Positions 9,504-44,948 of a stretch of 64,000 nucleotides of DNA are shown piece after piece. Position 1 is the first letter of the stretch; each line of letters begins with the position of its first letter. The position numbers and the translations under genes were made by a program. The DNA is taken from positions 355 to 64,354 of the forward strand of contig CAMBFS010000002.1 in assembly GCA_945865755.1 (NCBI GenBank), read 5' to 3'. Origin of the DNA: Klebsiella pneumoniae. GTDB lineage: Bacteria > Desulfobacterota > Binatia > Bin18. The notes under the pieces are model-generated. The model did no database searches. It was not told where the DNA came from and saw only the letters and a list, made by a program, of their open reading frames with translations.

Positions 9504-9962
9504 TCAGTTGGGCTTCTCATTTTCTGTCTTCCTCAGCACCAATGTTGCCTTTGCTGCCAGCTCCTGTGCTCGTGACATCCAGACATGCTTCTCTAGAGGC
9601 CAATTCACGATGTTTCCATGCCGTGGGGGTGGTTCCCGCGATTCTACTTGAAGTCCACTATCACTAACATCCGCAACGACAAGATTTGCTCTCGCATAAA
9701 GTTCTTTTTTGCGCGGCTGAGCAACATAGACATCCCCCAGCTTCCATATCTTCTCTTCCCCCATTCCTTGTATACGGAAGATGGACGTTTTGTGATCGCG
9801 GGGAGCTGGGTGGAATGCTCGCGGCTTTACTCGACCCGAGGTGTTGTAGTCTCCACTTTGCAGGAGATAACGGCTTATGCCCTCGCTAGGAACAACTTGG
9901 GTTCCCAGACGAGGCAAGGAGACGCGAAAGACAATCCGAGATAACCAATGGGAGAGCTTCAT
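9504..9962 (-). CDS. Conserved hypothetical protein, putative ART-like toxin of the TIGR04255 cassette
   Basis: Third gene of a coupled triad; SRY...VKPRAF...TSIFR...RHGNI pattern. Start uncertain (9962, 9980 or 9998). Confidence 0.6.
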   Translation of the reverse strand: MKLSHWLSRIVFRVSLPRLGTQVVPSEGISRYLLQSGDYNTSGRVKPRAFHPAPRDHKTSIFRIQGMGEEKIWKLGDVYVAQPRKKELYARANLVVADVSDSGLQVESREPPPRHGNIVNWPLEKHVWMSRAQELAAKATLVLRKTENEKPN

Positions 9963-10407
9963 GAATATGGTCGGTTCCATGTGTTTTCGTATAACCAATT
10001 AAGGCAGCAAAGGTTAGGGTCCCATCCCTTCCAACGCTCACTGAAAAGATCCGGCGGCGTCCCAGGTCCCATTCAAATAAAATTTCTCCATCCTTATCGG
10101 CAACTATTTCAGGAACAGGGACAGGACTTGGAAGGAGCCTAAGAAACTGGCCTGCATAAGCGTAAGTATTCGGCTCAACGGCATTAGCTCCTTCTCCATC
10201 CCAATCATCGACCTGGGCTCTCAGATACTCGGCATTGAGGGCTTCCTGAGCACTGCGCTTCGGTTCTCCAATCGTCATGCTGCCAGCAAACTCCGAGGCC
10301 TCATCGGTGAGTCGGCCAAGAGATCGAGCTTCCTCACTGAGAGCACGATCGGTCCGGGGGTGAAAAGCAAAACCTACCGTAGATAAAGTAGCAAGCGCAA
10401 CAGTCAT
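9886..10407 (-). CDS. Conserved hypothetical protein, putative antitoxin of the TIGR04255 cassette
   Basis: ATGA-coupled to the upstream gene; DDWDGEGA..., FLRLLP...PEI..D.DGEI.FEW pattern. Confidence 0.7.
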   Translation of the reverse strand: MTVALATLSTVGFAFHPRTDRALSEEARSLGRLTDEASEFAGSMTIGEPKRSAQEALNAEYLRAQVDDWDGEGANAVEPNTYAYAGQFLRLLPSPVPVPEIVADKDGEILFEWDLGRRRIFSVSVGRDGTLTFAALIGYTKTHGTDHIHEALPLVISDCLSRLLASSGNPSCS

Positions 10408-11150
10408 TCGAATTGCCTCAAAGCCTCTTCAGTAAGGCTACTGAAGAAAATGCGGTTTTTGAAGTCTCTCAAGCGATGGAATGTTTCTTCAACAGCTAGG
10501 GCGTCTGTGGCAAAAGAGCTCTCCTTGAAGGTATCAATATCTAAAATGACGGCCTGTTGTCGCTCACTCACCTTCACTTCCAGCGCCTGAGTGATGTGCG
10601 CAGCGATGTCCATGTCACGATCGTGAATTGTTAGTCTCGTGAGGAAATTGCTAACGAATTGGGGTAACTCTGACGGGATTACAGGCGCAGACCGTAAATA
10701 GGTCTCAAATGAAATCTCCCCCAAAGGTAAGGGAATACGATTGATATATCGGAGAGCGAGTCGAATAATCCCCTCTGGCTGTGCAACTGCGGAATAGCGC
10801 TGCCACAGTTCGAGAACGAGCGGAAACAATTCTTGCCAACTCGTATACGGACGGAGCCAATTGAAGGTAAACCCATCTACTCGAAATTGTGCGACCATTC
10901 GTTCATCAGCAGCTTTAAAAAAGTACCCTTGCATCCCAAGATCTTGAACAACAGGAGGCTGGAATCGCTGCGCATCGACTTTGATGAGGGCCTGGGCCAT
11001 ACGTCGAGGTTCCATCTTCGGAAAGCGACTGGCAAGCTGAGACTGCAAGGAGGCAAATTCCTCACAACGAAATCCAGATCGTGCCTTGACACGAAAATCG
11101 AAAATAGCTTCGGTAATTGGTGCGTTCCGGAGAGGTCGTGGGGCTGGCAT
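10404..11150 (-). CDS. TIGR04255 family protein
   Basis: N-terminal PLRNAPITEAIFDFR, IIRLALRYINRI, C-terminal ILDID and LRDFKNRIFF are the family signature as I recall it. Confidence 0.85.
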   Translation of the reverse strand: MPAPRPLRNAPITEAIFDFRVKARSGFRCEEFASLQSQLASRFPKMEPRRMAQALIKVDAQRFQPPVVQDLGMQGYFFKAADERMVAQFRVDGFTFNWLRPYTSWQELFPLVLELWQRYSAVAQPEGIIRLALRYINRIPLPLGEISFETYLRSAPVIPSELPQFVSNFLTRLTIHDRDMDIAAHITQALEVKVSERQQAVILDIDTFKESSFATDALAVEETFHRLRDFKNRIFFSSLTEEALRQFE

Positions 11151-31187: not shown

Positions 31188-31264
31188 GTAGCCTGGATGA
31201 AGCGGAGCGGAATCCAGGTTCCGCGCGGGACACCCCGGATTCCGCTCCGCTCCATCCGGGCTAC
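31188..31264. repeat. GTAG-family REP-like palindrome, copy 1
   Basis: GTAGCCTGGATG...GGAATCC...GGATTCCGCT...CATCCGGGCTAC; homologous copies at 41902-41988 and 42056-42142. Confidence 0.88.
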
Positions 31265-38896: not shown

Positions 38897-39199
38897 TCAT
38901 GCGGGCGTGGCGACCACAGGTGATACCCGCCGGACATGAATGTGCTTCGTTCGTTTACGAGTTTGTGCGATGTCATAGGACACCTGCATCCGGAGCAGGG
39001 TATCCATCTTCACCCCGAACGCTTTTTCAATCCGTAACGCCATCTCGGCGGACAGGTCCGCCTTGCCATTCAGCAGACTGGAGAGGGTGGGACGAGACAC
39101 CTGCAACGCGACAGCGGCTTGGGTCACCGAAAACCCGGCAGGCTGCACGATTTCCGTGCGGATAAAATCGCCCGGATGGGGAGGGTTCTTCATCGGCAT
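38897..39199 (-). CDS. higA: HigA-family antitoxin (HTH)
   Basis: MKNPPHPG.FIR, A.AL.VSR.TLS.LLNGK..LS.EMALR.EKAFG. Confidence 0.92.
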   Translation of the reverse strand: MPMKNPPHPGDFIRTEIVQPAGFSVTQAAVALQVSRPTLSSLLNGKADLSAEMALRIEKAFGVKMDTLLRMQVSYDIAQTRKRTKHIHVRRVSPVVATPA

Positions 39200-39501: not shown

Positions 39502-39629
39502 TGTCACTCTGTAGCCTGTGACATAACACTTGTCAAAATAAAGTAGCCCGGTTGGAATGAAAAGGGCCAGCCGAGCGCAGGCATGGCGGGCGAGACGCCT
39601 GCGCTCCCAGGGCTCGCCTCTTTGTGCGG

Positions 39630-39760
39630 TCTTTGCCCCGGAGAGGCGTAAGAGATTAGCCCAGGGCGTCAGCCCTGGGAAACAATGCCAGGATTCCTCA
39701 GCCCCGGAGGGGCGATAGAACCTGAGACAGCGGTGTTCTGTCGCCCCTCCGGGGCTCAAG
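39630..39760. repeat. REP-like hairpin cluster
   Basis: CCCAGGGC-GTCA-GCCCTGGG hairpin and AGCCCCGGAGGGGCGA...TCGCCCCTCCGGGGCT inverted repeat. Confidence 0.75.
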
Positions 39761-39929
39761 ACGACTGTCCAACAAAGGCCATACAAACGACAAAGACCTT
39801 ATTTCGGATAAAGTCTCATGGAGGAAAGACCCGCGCCCCGTTCCTTTCCCGGATAGGCGATGGCATGATGTCCGCCTTCATCGGGTTGTTGGCAGGCGAG
39901 ACGCCTGCGCTCCCAGGAAAAGAGACCGA

Positions 39930-41216
39930 ATGATGCGTACTCTTCAACTCCCGCGACGCCACGCCAGCGTCTTCTTTGCCGTCCTCGTCTGGGGGCTCTT
40001 CCTCTCGCCCGTTGTCGCCCGTGCGCAAGACGAAACTCCCGCTGTTGCCTTGTCCCTTGAAGCCTTCGACATGCCTGGGGACGCGGGAGACAGTATCGGC
40101 CTGCGCTGGCCGGTGCTGACAACCGCGTCGCAGACCGCCGTGTACCGCGTCTCGCTCAGCACACAGGAAACCGGGGAGTTCACACACATCGCCGAGTTTG
40201 GCGCACGGACCCATTACGAAACCGACATTAGTGGTCCGTGGTGGGTCTGGGGCGCGAAACGGCGGGATGTCCATTTTTTTCAGGTCAAATCGACCTCGGA
40301 CTTTCGGCTGGAGCGGGACACCACCTATTTCTTTCAGGTGACCTTGAGCGACGGGCAAGCCGAGGTGAAGAGCGCCATCGTCTCAGCCGCGCCGCACGCG
40401 AATCTGTTGAACTGGGCGAAGCTGAACAATCTTGGCATTCTCCTCGCGTTCGCGGCCACGCTGTTGGTGTCGATTCGCCGGGCGCGGGTCAATCCCAATA
40501 TCTTTCTCCGACGGATTCCTGGTCTTGACGCGGTTGAGGAAGCCGTGGGGCGTGCAACCGAGATGGGGCGTCCGGTGCTCTACCTCACGGGCAGTGGGGA
40601 CTTTGGCGGGAGCAGTGACCCCTCTAGTTTGGCGACCATCGCGGCCACGGTGATTCTGAGCGATGTGGCCAAGCGGGTGGCGACCTACGGCGCGGAACTC
40701 AAGGTGCCGCACCGCGCACCGATTGTCATGGCGGTTTGCCAAGAGATGGTGCGCGAAGCCTACTTCGCCGCCGGTCGCCCCGATGCCTACCGCGAGGACA
40801 CCAACTTCTTTATTAGCGGAGACCAGTTCGCCTACACCGCCGCGGTTGATGGCCTGATTTTACGTGAGAAACCAGCGGCCAATTTTTTCATGGGCTATTA
40901 TTACGCGGAGTCCCTGTTGTTGGCGGAAACCGGGGCGACCACCGGGGCGATTCAGATCGCCGGGACGGACGCGGAACATCAGTTGCCGTTCTTCATTACC
41001 ACGTGTGACTATACGTTGATCGGCGAGGAGTTGTATGCCGCGAGCGCGTATCTGTCGCGCGAGCCGGTGCTGGTCGGGACGCTGCGGGGGCAAGATATAG
41101 GCAAAGGCGTGCTGCTTGGCGTCATGGTGATTGGGACGGTGGCGATCACGCTGGGCGAGATTTTCGCTGTCCCGTGGATCAAAACTGTCTTTCAACTCTT
41201 CACTGATATGAAATAG
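39930..41216 (+). CDS. Membrane protein with N-terminal extracytoplasmic FN3-like domain and C-terminal DUF6754-like domain
   Basis: Signal peptide, D.PGDAGDSIGL.W, TTYFFQV; then a TM and RRIPGLDAVEEAVGRATEMGRP...ESLLLAETG...QIAGT...QLPFFITTCDY.LIGEELYAASAYL. Confidence 0.8.
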   Translation: MMRTLQLPRRHASVFFAVLVWGLFLSPVVARAQDETPAVALSLEAFDMPGDAGDSIGLRWPVLTTASQTAVYRVSLSTQETGEFTHIAEFGARTHYETDISGPWWVWGAKRRDVHFFQVKSTSDFRLERDTTYFFQVTLSDGQAEVKSAIVSAAPHANLLNWAKLNNLGILLAFAATLLVSIRRARVNPNIFLRRIPGLDAVEEAVGRATEMGRPVLYLTGSGDFGGSSDPSSLATIAATVILSDVAKRVATYGAELKVPHRAPIVMAVCQEMVREAYFAAGRPDAYREDTNFFISGDQFAYTAAVDGLILREKPAANFFMGYYYAESLLLAETGATTGAIQIAGTDAEHQLPFFITTCDYTLIGEELYAASAYLSREPVLVGTLRGQDIGKGVLLGVMVIGTVAITLGEIFAVPWIKTVFQLFTDMK

Positions 41217-41226
41217 GAGCAGCCCC

Positions 41227-41859
41227 ATGCTTTTTTGGAAACGGACGTTCCCGTTGATGCTCACGTTCCTCTTGGGGGTCACGTTCACGGCCCAGTACTA
41301 CGTCCCGCATCCGGCGTCGGAGTCGTTGCTGACGGAGGTGTCGGTGTGGGGGCAGATTATTGGGGGGTTCGCCATTCTCTTGGGTGTGGGCAGTTTGATT
41401 CGCTCTCACTATGTGAAGATCAAGCGGCGCGAAGCGGGATGGGGCTACAGCGGGGTGATGTTTCTCTCGATGCTCATCATGCTCGCCGCGGGCTTCTGGT
41501 CGGGTGGCAAGACGGAAGCCACGTCGTTTGGGTGGCTCTACAGCTATGTGTTCGTGGCGTTACAGGGGACGATGTTTTCGTTGCTCGCGTTTTTCGTGGC
41601 TTCCGCCGCGTATCGAGCGTTCCGCGCGCGCACCCCGGAAGCCACGGTTTTGTTAGTGGCGGCCATTTTGGTGATGTGGGGCCGGGTGCCGTTGGGTGAG
41701 CATCTGATTTCCGGGATTGGGTCGGTGACCGAGTGGATTATGAACGTGCCCAATACAGCGGCGCAACGTGGCATCCTTATCGGGGTGAGCCTGGGAGGGA
41801 TCGCCACGTCGATTAAAATTATTTGTGGGATTGAGCGGTCGTATCTGGGGAAGGACTGA
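41227..41859 (+). CDS. Conserved hypothetical polytopic membrane protein
   Basis: About 6 TM; FSLLAFFVASAAYRAFRAR, VPNTAAQRGILIG, G.ERSYLG. Confidence 0.85.
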   Translation: MLFWKRTFPLMLTFLLGVTFTAQYYVPHPASESLLTEVSVWGQIIGGFAILLGVGSLIRSHYVKIKRREAGWGYSGVMFLSMLIMLAAGFWSGGKTEATSFGWLYSYVFVALQGTMFSLLAFFVASAAYRAFRARTPEATVLLVAAILVMWGRVPLGEHLISGIGSVTEWIMNVPNTAAQRGILIGVSLGGIATSIKIICGIERSYLGKD

Positions 41860-41901
41860 GGATTGGGGATTTGGGATTGCGGATTGCGGATTTGGAGCAA
41901 G

Positions 41902-42142
41902 GTAGCCCGGATGGAACGGAGTGGAATCCGGGACCTCCTGCTGTGGGCACACGCCGCCCCGGATTCCGCTTTGCTCCATTCGGGCTACAGCTGAGAATTG
42001 CGGATTTGGGATTGCGGACTCGGAGTGATTTTGACATTGAAGTTCAACGAGCAAGGTAGCCCGGATGGAACGGAGTGGAATCCGGGACCTCCTGCTGTGG
42101 GCACGCGCCGCCCCGGATTCCGCTTTGCTCCATCCAGGCTAC
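41902..42142. repeat. Two tandem GTAG-family REP palindromes inside the four-gene operon
   Basis: 87-bp near-identical copies at 41902-41988 and 42056-42142, each preceded by GAGCAAG. Confidence 0.9.
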
Positions 42143-42156
42143 AGGACTGATAACTG

Positions 42157-42993
42157 ATGACTACCTTTATTTCCCGCCTCCTGCGCCTGGACCGGCGTGT
42201 AATTTTCTTGCTGATCGCGGTGGCGACGTTGTTGCCGTTGCTCTATCCCGTGAATTTGCCGATTCGGGTCTCGCCGGAAGTGCAACGGGTCTACGACTAT
42301 ATTGAGCAGCTCCCCGCTGGGTCGTTGATGTTGCTGTCGATGGACTTCGAGCCGGGTGGGAAACCGGAACTCTACCCAATGGCCGTGGCGTTACTGCGCC
42401 ATGCGTTCCAGAAAGATATCAAAGTGCTGGGGATGACGCTGTGGCCGGCGGGCGCGGGCATCGCCGAAATCGCTTTTACTGAAGTGGCGCGGGAAAAAGG
42501 CAAGGTGAAAGGGACGGACTATGTCTTCTTAGGGTACGCGCCTGGGGATGCGAGCGCGGTGATTAGCATGGGTCAGGATTTCCACGCCGCGTTTCCCGCC
42601 GATTATTACGGCACCAAGACAGTGGATATTCCGTTGCTTGAGAAGGTGCGGTCACTGCGCGACATGCAATACGTGATGAGTCTGAGTGTCGGCTTTCCGG
42701 GGATCGACACCTGGTATGTGTACGGCAAGGAAAAATATGGGTTTGAGCTGGGGGGCGGATGCACGGCGGTGAGCGCGCCCCGCTTTTATCCGTTGCTGGA
42801 TACGGGACAGATCAATGGGCTGCTCGGCGGTCTGCGCGGGGCGGCGGAGTATGAAATTCTCCTGGGGGTCAAAGGCAAGGCGATGGCGGGGATGGCGGCG
42901 CAGTCGGCGACACATTTTGTCATTATCTTTCTTATCATCGTCTGTAATGCGCTTTATTTTCTCACTGGACAGGCGCGGGGGAGGCAGCGATGA
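42157..42993 (+). CDS. Conserved hypothetical protein (TM, alpha/beta domain, TM)
   Basis: DRRVIFLLI, DFEPG..PEL.PMA, DYVFLGY.PG, GQINGLLGGLRGAAEYE, Q.ATH..II..I. Confidence 0.85.
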   Translation: MTTFISRLLRLDRRVIFLLIAVATLLPLLYPVNLPIRVSPEVQRVYDYIEQLPAGSLMLLSMDFEPGGKPELYPMAVALLRHAFQKDIKVLGMTLWPAGAGIAEIAFTEVAREKGKVKGTDYVFLGYAPGDASAVISMGQDFHAAFPADYYGTKTVDIPLLEKVRSLRDMQYVMSLSVGFPGIDTWYVYGKEKYGFELGGGCTAVSAPRFYPLLDTGQINGLLGGLRGAAEYEILLGVKGKAMAGMAAQSATHFVIIFLIIVCNALYFLTGQARGRQR

Positions 42994-43712
42994 GTACCGA
43001 AGTCATGATTGGCGCATGGGTCGCGGTGGGCTTGAGCCTGTGCATGTACAGCTTTCTGTATAAGGACAACCCATTTTTCAAGTTCGGGGAGCATGTCTTT
43101 GTCGGGGCCTCGGTCGGCTATCTGTTGATCATCACCTACTACCAAGTGATGACCAACAAGCTCTATATCCCGATGACGCAACAGGGGAAATGGTGGCTCT
43201 TGGTCCCCGCCTTCTTGGGCCTCTTGCTGCTGGCGCGGTTCATTCCCCCCATTGCTTGGCTCAGCCGTATTTCCTTCGCGTTTTTGCTGGGCATCAGTTC
43301 CGGGCTGGCGATTCCACGACAAATCTCGTCGTTCATCCTCAAGCAGGTGGAGGGCACGTTGAAACCGTTAGTGACCGTGGGCGATGGCGGGGTGGTGTGG
43401 ATGACGTGGGCGGGACTCAATGCGTTGCTGGTGTTGGTCGGTGTGGTGAGCGTGCTGTTCTATTTCTTCTTTTCACTGGAACATACGGGGACCGTGCGCC
43501 GGATCGCGCGTGTGGGCATTTACTTTCTCATGGTGTCGTTCGGGGCGGCGTTTGGCTACACGGTGATGGCGCGGATGTCGTTGTTGATTGGCCGGTTTGA
43601 CGAGCTGACGCTCTATGCGTCGGCCGCGTATGGCTACGCCACCCCGGTGTTACTGGTGGCGATGATCGTGGGCTTGTGGTGGTGGGAGCGGGGGCAGGTG
43701 GGGAAGGAGTAG
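42990..43712 (+). CDS. Conserved hypothetical polytopic membrane protein
   Basis: ATGA-coupled; YSFLYKDNPFFKFGEHVFVG, GIYFLMVSFGAAFGYTVMARMSLLIGR. Confidence 0.85.
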   Translation: MSTEVMIGAWVAVGLSLCMYSFLYKDNPFFKFGEHVFVGASVGYLLIITYYQVMTNKLYIPMTQQGKWWLLVPAFLGLLLLARFIPPIAWLSRISFAFLLGISSGLAIPRQISSFILKQVEGTLKPLVTVGDGGVVWMTWAGLNALLVLVGVVSVLFYFFFSLEHTGTVRRIARVGIYFLMVSFGAAFGYTVMARMSLLIGRFDELTLYASAAYGYATPVLLVAMIVGLWWWERGQVGKE

Positions 43713-44390: not shown

Positions 44391-44948
44391 TTACCGTGCC
44401 CCTAGCAGCCGGTCAAGCAGGATAGCGGCGGCGGCACGCACGGACAGGTGATTATAATCGCCAGCGCCGTGGATTGGCTCGAGAATATAGTCGGATTGGT
44501 CCAAAATTTCGTCTATCAAGCCCCAGCCGGTCCCCAGCAGCATGAGCAGTGGTGGACCCGGTGTTTCCGCTAGTTGGCGGACATTGGCGAACGACACCCG
44601 ACGCAACCCCGAGCGGGCCGAGGTCGCCACCAGGCGTGGGCGTTGTCCGGTTTCGGCGTGGATCGCTTTGATCGCGCCATCGAGATCATCGGCGAGTGCC
44701 ACTAGGGAGAGCGCATCCTTGCGAGTTTCATTGTAGGTGCTGCCGTAGCCATGATCCCAGTGGTCGAGAATTTTTTCGGCGAGCAGTCGGAGGGTTCGTG
44801 TCGGGGTCACGACGAAGTAGCGTTTCACACCATACGTCCGTGCTGAGCGGGCGATGTCGTGAATATCCATGTTCGTGATCGACGTGGTCACGATGTTATG
44901 CCCTTTGTCGTAGACGGGGTAATGGATGAGTGCGAGGTAAAAGTCCAT
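44391..44948 (-). CDS. SPOUT-class RNA methyltransferase (trmD-associated)
   Basis: LIHYPVY, TNMDIHDIARS..TYG, LGTGWGL, YNHLSVR.AAAI.LDRL. Confidence 0.92.
   Translation of the reverse strand: MDFYLALIHYPVYDKGHNIVTTSITNMDIHDIARSARTYGVKRYFVVTPTRTLRLLAEKILDHWDHGYGSTYNETRKDALSLVALADDLDGAIKAIHAETGQRPRLVATSARSGLRRVSFANVRQLAETPGPPLLMLLGTGWGLIDEILDQSDYILEPIHGAGDYNHLSVRAAAAILLDRLLGAR

Follow-up and report, generated by a model that had tools for sequence, protein, structure and literature searches.

Four co-inherited membrane-protein genes, one of the DUF6754 family, are kept in genomes that lack the associated ASKHA ATPase gene

Introduction

Do four adjacent membrane-protein genes in a genome of the Binatia belong together, which other genes belong with them, and what could such a set do? 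The genes, here called g1 to g4, occupy positions 39930-43712 of a 64,000-nt stretch of DNA (the window) that covers positions 355 to 64,354 of the forward strand of contig CAMBFS010000002.1 (assembly GCA_945865755.1), deposited as Klebsiella pneumoniae and placed by GTDB in the Desulfobacterota (Binatia; Bin18). An earlier note, made from the letters of the window, had read them as a pseudo-symmetric complex of two plus two paralogous membrane proteins that resembles no known system and has no ATPase. We have compared the locus with its relatives in other genomes, searched its products against sequence and structure libraries and modelled the proteins.

Results

The four genes are co-oriented, as the earlier note had it, and all are intact open reading frames (ORFs):

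39930-41216, plus strand: g1, the DUF6754 subunit, 428 aa
41227-41859, plus strand: g2, a polytopic subunit, 210 aa
42157-42993, plus strand: g3, a bitopic-hairpin subunit, 278 aa
42990-43712, plus strand: g4, a polytopic subunit, 240 aa

The ORF coordinates bear out the ATGA through which the g4 start overlaps the g3 stop, and also the gap filled with repetitive extragenic palindrome (REP)-like repeats, whereas the supposed 11-bp gap between g1 and g2 measures 10 nt, with an AGGAG overlapping the g1 stop codon.

Relatives were collected with a back-translated pattern scan using one genome per species, which gave at least 593 confirmed cases; 80 related loci were kept for gene-order analysis, and 73 of these lie on a contig long enough to judge. 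The order g1-g2-g3-g4 is identical in all 73 (73/73), so that the genes do occur together elsewhere, a point on which the earlier note had made its reading depend. Between them the loci cover at least seven phyla, with representatives of Binatia, Methylomirabilis, Nitrospirota, Scalindua/Brocadiaceae and other Planctomycetota, Elusimicrobia, Latescibacterota and Gemmatimonadota. Clustering of the flanking ORFs showed that 61-66 of the 80 loci have three further genes directly upstream in the same orientation, giving a module in the order small protein (∼120 aa), A (an ASKHA ATPase of ∼600 aa, PF13941), P (a partner protein of ∼377 aa), g1, g2, g3, and g4. Throughout the module, start codons often overlap the preceding stop (-4 nt), and overlaps of -1 nt are also common. 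As a set of membrane-protein genes, g1-g4 are inherited together and translationally coupled, and no described system in the sequence libraries or literature searched matches the module. The earlier remark that no ATPase is visible is right for the window but not for the module, in which the PF13941 ATPase precedes the cassette in those 61-66 loci and lies on another contig, C39, in the present genome.

The DUF6754 gene was found in 58 of the 61 sampled Nitrospiraceae species genomes, with almost always just one match per genome. Around the present organism the distribution is patchy (34 of 41 genomes in its own family and 10 of 81 in the class, all from two families), and this accounts for the single carrier among 201 genomes of the phylum. 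Horizontal transfer or mis-binning as the source of that phylum figure was rejected, given the frequency within the family and the gene order around rplS and ffh common to relatives.

The presence of the DUF6754 gene (D) and of the ASKHA ATPase gene (A) was tabulated for the 41 genomes of the organism's own family:

D present, A present: 25 genomes
D present, A absent: 9 genomes, all of one sister genus, mostly closed single-contig assemblies, 94-100% complete
D absent, A absent: 4 genomes
D absent, A present: 3 genomes, two of them fragmented or contaminated assemblies and one with a 91-residue remnant

The membrane genes are thus kept without the ATPase gene in nine genomes of the family, which is the new observation of this work and the reason why we regard g1-g4 as a self-sufficient core. 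Outside the family, A is present in 17 of the 18 carrier genomes tested. P was likewise not found in the two A-less genomes examined (loci L007 and L008, one of them on a complete 5.0-Mb chromosome), both of which keep the small gene and g1-g4 intact. Between these two genomes the ratio of nonsynonymous to synonymous substitution rates (dN/dS) is 0.26 for the small gene, 0.17 for g1, 0.08 for g2, 0.14 for g3, and 0.15 for g4 (dS 0.30-0.44), from which it follows that the membrane genes are under purifying selection without A and P. In this sample the A-P pair depends on the membrane unit and not vice versa, and the small protein remains with g1-g4 upon loss of the pair. The remnant of A (E=8e-12; contig C1 of genome G253, positions 221788-222114) lies in a genome of the same family that has no DUF6754 gene and looks like a snapshot of the loss of the whole module.

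The protein g1 is a member of Pfam DUF6754 (PF20539), matched over residues 156-409 with E=4.7e-110 and 367.2 bits (gathering cut-off 27; profile positions 2-249 of 257), and its gene is single-copy in the genome. More than 8000 homologues were found, all labelled hypothetical or DUF6754. A profile of the DUF6754 domain retrieved 2456 representative clusters at E≤1e-3, a number that falls to 1036 at E≤1e-30; the family size of about 2,500 clusters is counted at 50% identity. In an alignment of 43 sequences, which span at least seven phyla, 56 columns of the domain are invariant, and its conserved acidic or polar residues include Cys359, Asp360, Glu366, Glu367, Arg208, and Glu211. Hydropathy and charge give g1 the order signal peptide, 128-aa exported domain, transmembrane helix (TM), 205-aa domain, and TM. 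The parts, in which AlphaFold2 (AF2) confidence is given as the predicted local distance difference test (pLDDT), are as follows:

39930-40028, plus strand: signal peptide, residues 1-33, with a hydropathy peak at 11-33 preceded by three Arg and, by eye, cleavage between ARA and Q
40053-40394, plus strand: exported beta-sandwich domain, immunoglobulin (Ig)/FN3-like, eight strands at pLDDT 80-92
40395-41156, plus strand: DUF6754 region, with TM1 (40413-40490), a predicted cytoplasmic alpha/beta domain and the start of TM2 (41094-41183)

The DUF6754 domain is predicted to be cytoplasmic because TM1 is directly followed by RRAR...RR, in line with the positive-inside rule. For the exported domain, Foldseek returned Ig-like folds only (E about 5e-4, TMt about 0.56) and a profile search matched the N-terminal residues 13-152 of the exopolygalacturonase 2uve (E=9e-5), which we take to be an FN3-like domain; the Pfam fn3 family itself gave no match in g1. 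The extracytoplasmic FN3-like domain that the earlier note had assigned to one subunit is therefore, by AF2 and Foldseek, a probable Ig/FN3-like beta-sandwich, and it is a lineage-variable add-on, since the DUF6754 domain is always C-terminal across the family while the part preceding it varies from ∼35 to more than 1000 aa. By eye, some homologues have N-terminal parts that resemble FN3- or CBM-like repeats, and one homologue has hardly any periplasmic part. None of the ten longest DUF6754 proteins, checked for Rosetta-stone fusions, carries a further Pfam domain.

None of g2, g3, and g4 has a match in Pfam, NCBIfam, PADLOC or the PDB sequences. The protein g2 has six TMs with both termini inside (positive loops at residues 59-69 and 129-137), modelled by AF2 as six long helices at pLDDT 80-96, and g4 has about seven TMs by hydropathy, modelled as seven helices at pLDDT 80-94. 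Hydropathy gives g3 a 203-aa domain between two TMs, and its parts, from hydropathy and AF2, are these:

42187-42270, plus strand: first TM of g3
42271-42879, plus strand: predicted periplasmic Rossmann-like alpha/beta domain with six strands
42880-42978, plus strand: second TM of g3

AF2 models g3 at pLDDT 83-98 with strands and helices alternating. Its 2004 detectable homologues are all called hypothetical and none has a Pfam domain; Asp63, Glu71, Asp121, and Glu233 are conserved.

For a joint model we used locus L021, from a Nitrospira lenta metagenome-assembled genome (MAG), in which g2, g3, and g4 lie in one frame and can be read through as a 784-aa chain with the stops read as Gly, together with an alignment of 148 single, double or triple rows from other loci. 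The resulting AF2 model has a mean pLDDT of 81.4 and a predicted TM-score (pTM) of 0.68, with disorder confined to the two linkers. Three independently placed parts, each at most 36% of the chain, should not reach such a pTM, and the value therefore points to a single g2-g3-g4 assembly. The Foldseek check that the earlier note had proposed gave Ig-like folds for the N-terminal domain of g1 and, for the g2-g3-g4 model, no PDB match at E≤0.001. The top matches of that model are G protein-coupled receptor (GPCR) fusion constructs, artefacts produced by the combination of a helix bundle and a Rossmann-like insert, and the g3 domain weakly matches the Rossmann halves of GT-B enzymes (OtsA, TreT, WaaG, and LpcC; E 0.03-0.3, probability up to 0.96). 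The modelled g2, g3, and g4 would thus represent new folds.

The A protein of this genome matches PF13941 end to end (E=9e-126) and has canonical ASKHA phosphate-1 (DCGSTTTK) and phosphate-2 (DIGGATTD) motifs. It scores below the NCBIfam equivalog cut-offs for GlmL (NF040745, 224.7 versus 475) and for the ornithine-degradation protein (198 versus 600) and below the TIGR01319 subfamily cut-off (155 versus 204), and its match to MreB-like_C is weak (E=0.07). P gives a weak match to barrel-sandwich domains of the NqrA_N, RnfC_N and biotin-lipoyl-like kind (E 0.008-0.03; 16.4-16.6 bits versus cut-offs of 25-25.6), and its C-terminus weakly resembles a KOW-like domain (Spt5) among PDB sequences. 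A lipoyl or biotinyl carrier role for P was rejected because no more than 28 of 43 sequences keep the candidate Lys. When g1, g3, A, and P were searched as profiles against the PDB sequences, the N-terminal region of 2uve and these weak Spt5 KOW and lipoyl-like matches were all that appeared.

In this genome the module is split. The small, A, and P genes are missing upstream of g1 in the window, where repeats and a short minus-strand ORF stand instead, and a search of the genome's contigs located them together on contig C39:

C39, 4432-4983: small-protein ORF
C39, 4980-6797: A, the ASKHA ATPase (PF13941)
C39, 6890-8029: P, the copy of the 377-aa module partner

By eye, the minus-strand ORFs that follow P read like PIN/toxin-antitoxin genes. 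The split looks like a trait of the genus rather than an accident of assembly because three further genomes of the genus also have the DUF6754 gene and A on different contigs. On the other side of the cassette, g4 converges on rplS-trmD-rimM-rpsP-ffh, an arrangement common to the Binatia-type loci L002, L003, and L006-L008, and the products of ffh, rplS, and trmD share 66-80% identity with those of these relatives; from this shared synteny and identity we conclude that g1-g4 were inherited vertically at the rplS-ffh site.

Repeats stand on both sides of g1-g2:

39584-39611 and 39890-39917, unstranded: 28-nt direct repeat upstream of g1, the second copy ending 12 nt before the g1 ATG
39634-39679, minus strand: Acido-Lenti-1 hairpin (Rfam; 47 bits versus a gathering score of 37), between the two direct-repeat copies
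41860-42156, unstranded: 297-nt insert between g2 and g3, two copies of a ∼154-nt composite repeat
41895-41990 and 42049-42144, unstranded: the two copies of a 96-nt hairpin element within that insert, from repeat analysis

The upstream repeats (39584-39917), whose direct copies also bracket a second hairpin with 27-nt arms, occupy the exact site where the P gene abuts g1 in relatives. Recombination between repeats was tested as the cause of the split, and the 23-nt core of the upstream repeat was not found in the part of contig C39 that was searched, the first 16 of its 25.6 kb. Each ∼154-nt unit between g2 and g3 consists of a GGATT-rich 28-mer followed by the hairpin element (31-nt arms, 25-nt loop), a third copy of whose arm lies at 31234-31264 on the minus strand. 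These repeats are best seen as an insertion into the operon, since the gap measures only -4 to about 160 nt among related loci. A promoter and terminator scan gave no signal above chance.

Three further ORFs of the window flank the cassette, the last two of them, read by eye, between tatC and g1:

44391-44948, minus strand: 185-aa ORF between rplS and trmD, at the same position and with 64-73% identity in L002, L003, and L006-L008
36824-38692, minus strand: 622-aa Gly/Thr-rich secreted protein ending in PVELQSFEVE
38897-39199, minus strand: 100-aa ORF reading like a HigA-type helix-turn-helix antitoxin gene

Several relatives depart from the common layout. In the Elusimicrobia loci L064, L069, L071, and L076 the small-A-P and g1-g4 halves lie 2.3-6.3 kb apart and appear to be separate transcription units, and in L062 and L072 minus-strand ORFs (one of ∼520-570 aa and one of ∼437 aa) stand directly upstream of g1. 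Two tandem g3 paralogues replace the single gene in L065 (9891-11533) and L066 (9805-11447), from Gemmatimonadota and Latescibacterota. In L039, a Nitrospirota MAG, g3 (9926-10774) has four in-frame stop codons and 31% identity, and the module is apparently decaying there. In 32 Nitrospira-type loci (including L011 and L013) g4 is directly followed by a co-oriented Memo-like gene (PF01875, 415 aa), which could be a lineage-specific eighth gene of the module in Nitrospira. In L065, two OppD/OppF-type ABC ATPase genes come after g4 in the same orientation, with no permease gene nearby, and OppD/F-like genes also lie downstream of g4 in L077. Among the 129 flanking ORFs of 31 non-Nitrospira loci, the following families recur:

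Opp/Dpp-type ABC ATPases: 7-8 matches
SurA/PpiD-like peptidyl-prolyl isomerases (PPIases): 6 matches, frequent in Elusimicrobia loci
SBP_bac_5: 4 matches
Class IV aminotransferase: 4 matches
LpxK: 3 matches

We treat these neighbours as leads only, because each is restricted to particular lineages and many lie on the other strand.

Discussion

The reading that we favour, to which we give an even chance, is that g1-g4 form the membrane core of a widespread and hitherto undescribed seven-gene module to which the A-P pair is an optional accessory. The four proteins would then make up one inner-membrane complex of about 17 TM helices, in which the Ig-like domain of g1 and the Rossmann-like domain of g3 would face the periplasm and the DUF6754 domain would face the cytoplasm and serve as the docking or control site for A-P. 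The pair itself would be an ATP-dependent accessory, whether regulator, booster or maintenance factor, and not an obligatory motor. We guess, with somewhat less than an even chance, that such a complex is a transport or translocation device, in which g2 and g4 would form the conduit for a substrate that crosses, enters or leaves the inner membrane.

Several points weigh against this reading. We infer the contact of g1 with g2-g4, and that of A-P with g1, only from their co-occurrence, and the AF2 model of g1, built on a 16-sequence alignment, reaches a pLDDT of only 26-70 in its DUF6754 part. The pTM of the g2-g3-g4 model comes from a single-chain fusion and partly unpaired alignments. The A-less genomes form one genus and hence represent one evolutionary loss, and an unrelated ATPase could have replaced A-P in that genus. 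As for transport, g2 and g4 match no transporter family or fold in Pfam, NCBIfam or Foldseek against the PDB and show no obvious set of conserved charged residues inside the membrane.

Other explanations have been weighed against the same data. The genes could instead encode an envelope-biogenesis or membrane-bound enzyme complex in which the Rossmann-like domain of g3 and the DUF6754 domain are catalytic and g2 and g4 hold a lipid substrate, for example to modify or flip a lipid-linked or cell-wall intermediate. The likeness of the g3 domain to GT-B glycosyltransferase halves, the many conserved acidic and polar residues of DUF6754 and those of g3, the FN3- or CBM-like repeats seen by eye in the N-terminal parts of g1 homologues, and the SurA/PpiD-like PPIases and LpxK next to the Elusimicrobia loci all fit such an enzyme; the Foldseek matches, however, are not significant for a fold that is ubiquitous, no known catalytic motif was identified, and the neighbours in question are confined to a single lineage, most of them on the opposite strand, and we consider this explanation unlikely. 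An obligate ATP-driven primary pump, with A and P as the motor without which g1-g4 are inactive, would account for the adjacency and translational coupling of A, P, and g1-g4 in most loci, for the presence of A in nearly every carrier outside the family (17/18), for its canonical phosphate motifs and for the fact that A was never convincingly found without DUF6754. What speaks against the pump are the nine mostly closed genomes that keep g1-g4 without any A gene, in two of which (L007 and L008) P is missing as well and the membrane genes are nevertheless under purifying selection, and the apparent division of the module into two transcription units, seen here as well as in L005 and in Elusimicrobia; the pump is, in our judgment, decidedly improbable.

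ASKHA proteins include membrane-tethered cytoskeletal and chaperone proteins, and g1-g4 might thus be a membrane anchor or signalling platform that recruits an ASKHA polymer or chaperone and transports nothing. The weak MreB-like_C match of A and the very high conservation of DUF6754, typical of a surface that meets several partners, agree with this. Some 17 TM helices are nevertheless large for an anchor, the membrane complex persists without A-P and GlmL-type proteins are, to our knowledge, not known to polymerise, so that the anchor is very improbable. The pseudo-symmetric complex of the earlier note, made of the ancient paralogue pairs g1~g3 and g2~g4, fares worst and hardly merits belief. 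In both g1 and g3 an alpha/beta domain lies between two TMs and the last TM is preceded by a conserved AA-x-x-Y ... Q segment, and a forced greedy hhalign alignment of the two is co-linear over 126 columns. The hhalign probabilities, however, are 0.6% for the full g1 and g3 proteins and 0.2% for their domains alone, and the pairing of g2 with g4 was rejected at 0.2%, with unequal helix numbers (6 versus 7). The similar tails taken earlier as a sign of paralogy are a real motif, but one too short to carry statistical weight, and the positive-inside rule would place the g1 domain in the cytoplasm and the g3 domain in the periplasm, which speaks against the symmetry. The Rossmann-like domains of g1 and g3 may still have a remote common origin.

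The favoured reading of a membrane core with an optional A-P pair also has to be set against systems already described. That the cassette matches no known system, as the earlier note had held, was borne out in Pfam, NCBIfam, PADLOC, PDB sequences and Foldseek against the PDB, and our literature search returned nothing on DUF6754 or PF13941 and nothing relevant on GlmL/ASKHA. Although g1 is a full-length, high-scoring member of the Pfam DUF6754 family, the entry covers the g1 domain only, and g2, g3, g4, the operon and its function lie outside it. A resembles the GlmL/MutL accessory protein of coenzyme-B12 glutamate/methylaspartate mutase and its ornithine-degradation relative in its PF13941 match and ASKHA motifs, but it is about 150 aa longer, falls below the equivalog and subfamily cut-offs, has no mutase genes nearby and is paired with a 377-aa partner and four membrane proteins.

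Nqr and Rnf have two small polytopic subunits (the 6-TM NqrD/E-RnfA/E pairs) beside a peripheral subunit, and P has its weak NqrA_N/RnfC_N likeness, below the family cut-offs; g2 and g4, in contrast to the subunits of Na+-NQR and Rnf, match neither the Rnf-Nqr family nor any Foldseek target, flavin or Fe-S motifs are missing, and the lipoyl-like Lys is not conserved. A membrane core that can exist without its soluble nucleotide-binding partner, usually encoded adjacent to it, is known from KtrB/TrkH with KtrA/TrkA. This is an analogy only, as the partner here is an actin-fold ATPase and not an RCK ring, and no sequence or fold relation was found. None of the seven proteins has a significant match to ABC_tran or to any permease family (the best is TMD0_ABC at E=0.029, below the cut-off) or any match in PADLOC-DB v2, and an anti-phage defence system was rejected on the latter result.

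The module may represent a new class of inner-membrane machine with folds not seen before, in which a self-sufficient core of g1-g4 and the small protein, with about 17 TM helices, is tuned or maintained by a detachable ASKHA ATPase and a barrel-sandwich/KOW partner docking on DUF6754, a proposal that we hold tentatively and rate a little short of even. If it is true, this would be the first membrane system known to have an ASKHA ATPase as a nucleotide-driven accessory. The module is near-universal in Nitrospira and occurs as well in anammox bacteria and in Methylomirabilis, organisms central to the nitrogen cycle, and DUF6754 is conserved at a level usual for core machinery. Of the four subunits, three lack both a family assignment and a structural relative in the PDB. 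A known function would therefore add a new kind of membrane system and would probably give the GlmL-type actin-fold ATPases their first defined role outside B12-mutase operons. The survival of the core without the ATPase pair narrows the possible mechanisms, and the A-less species offer natural "knock-out" comparisons.

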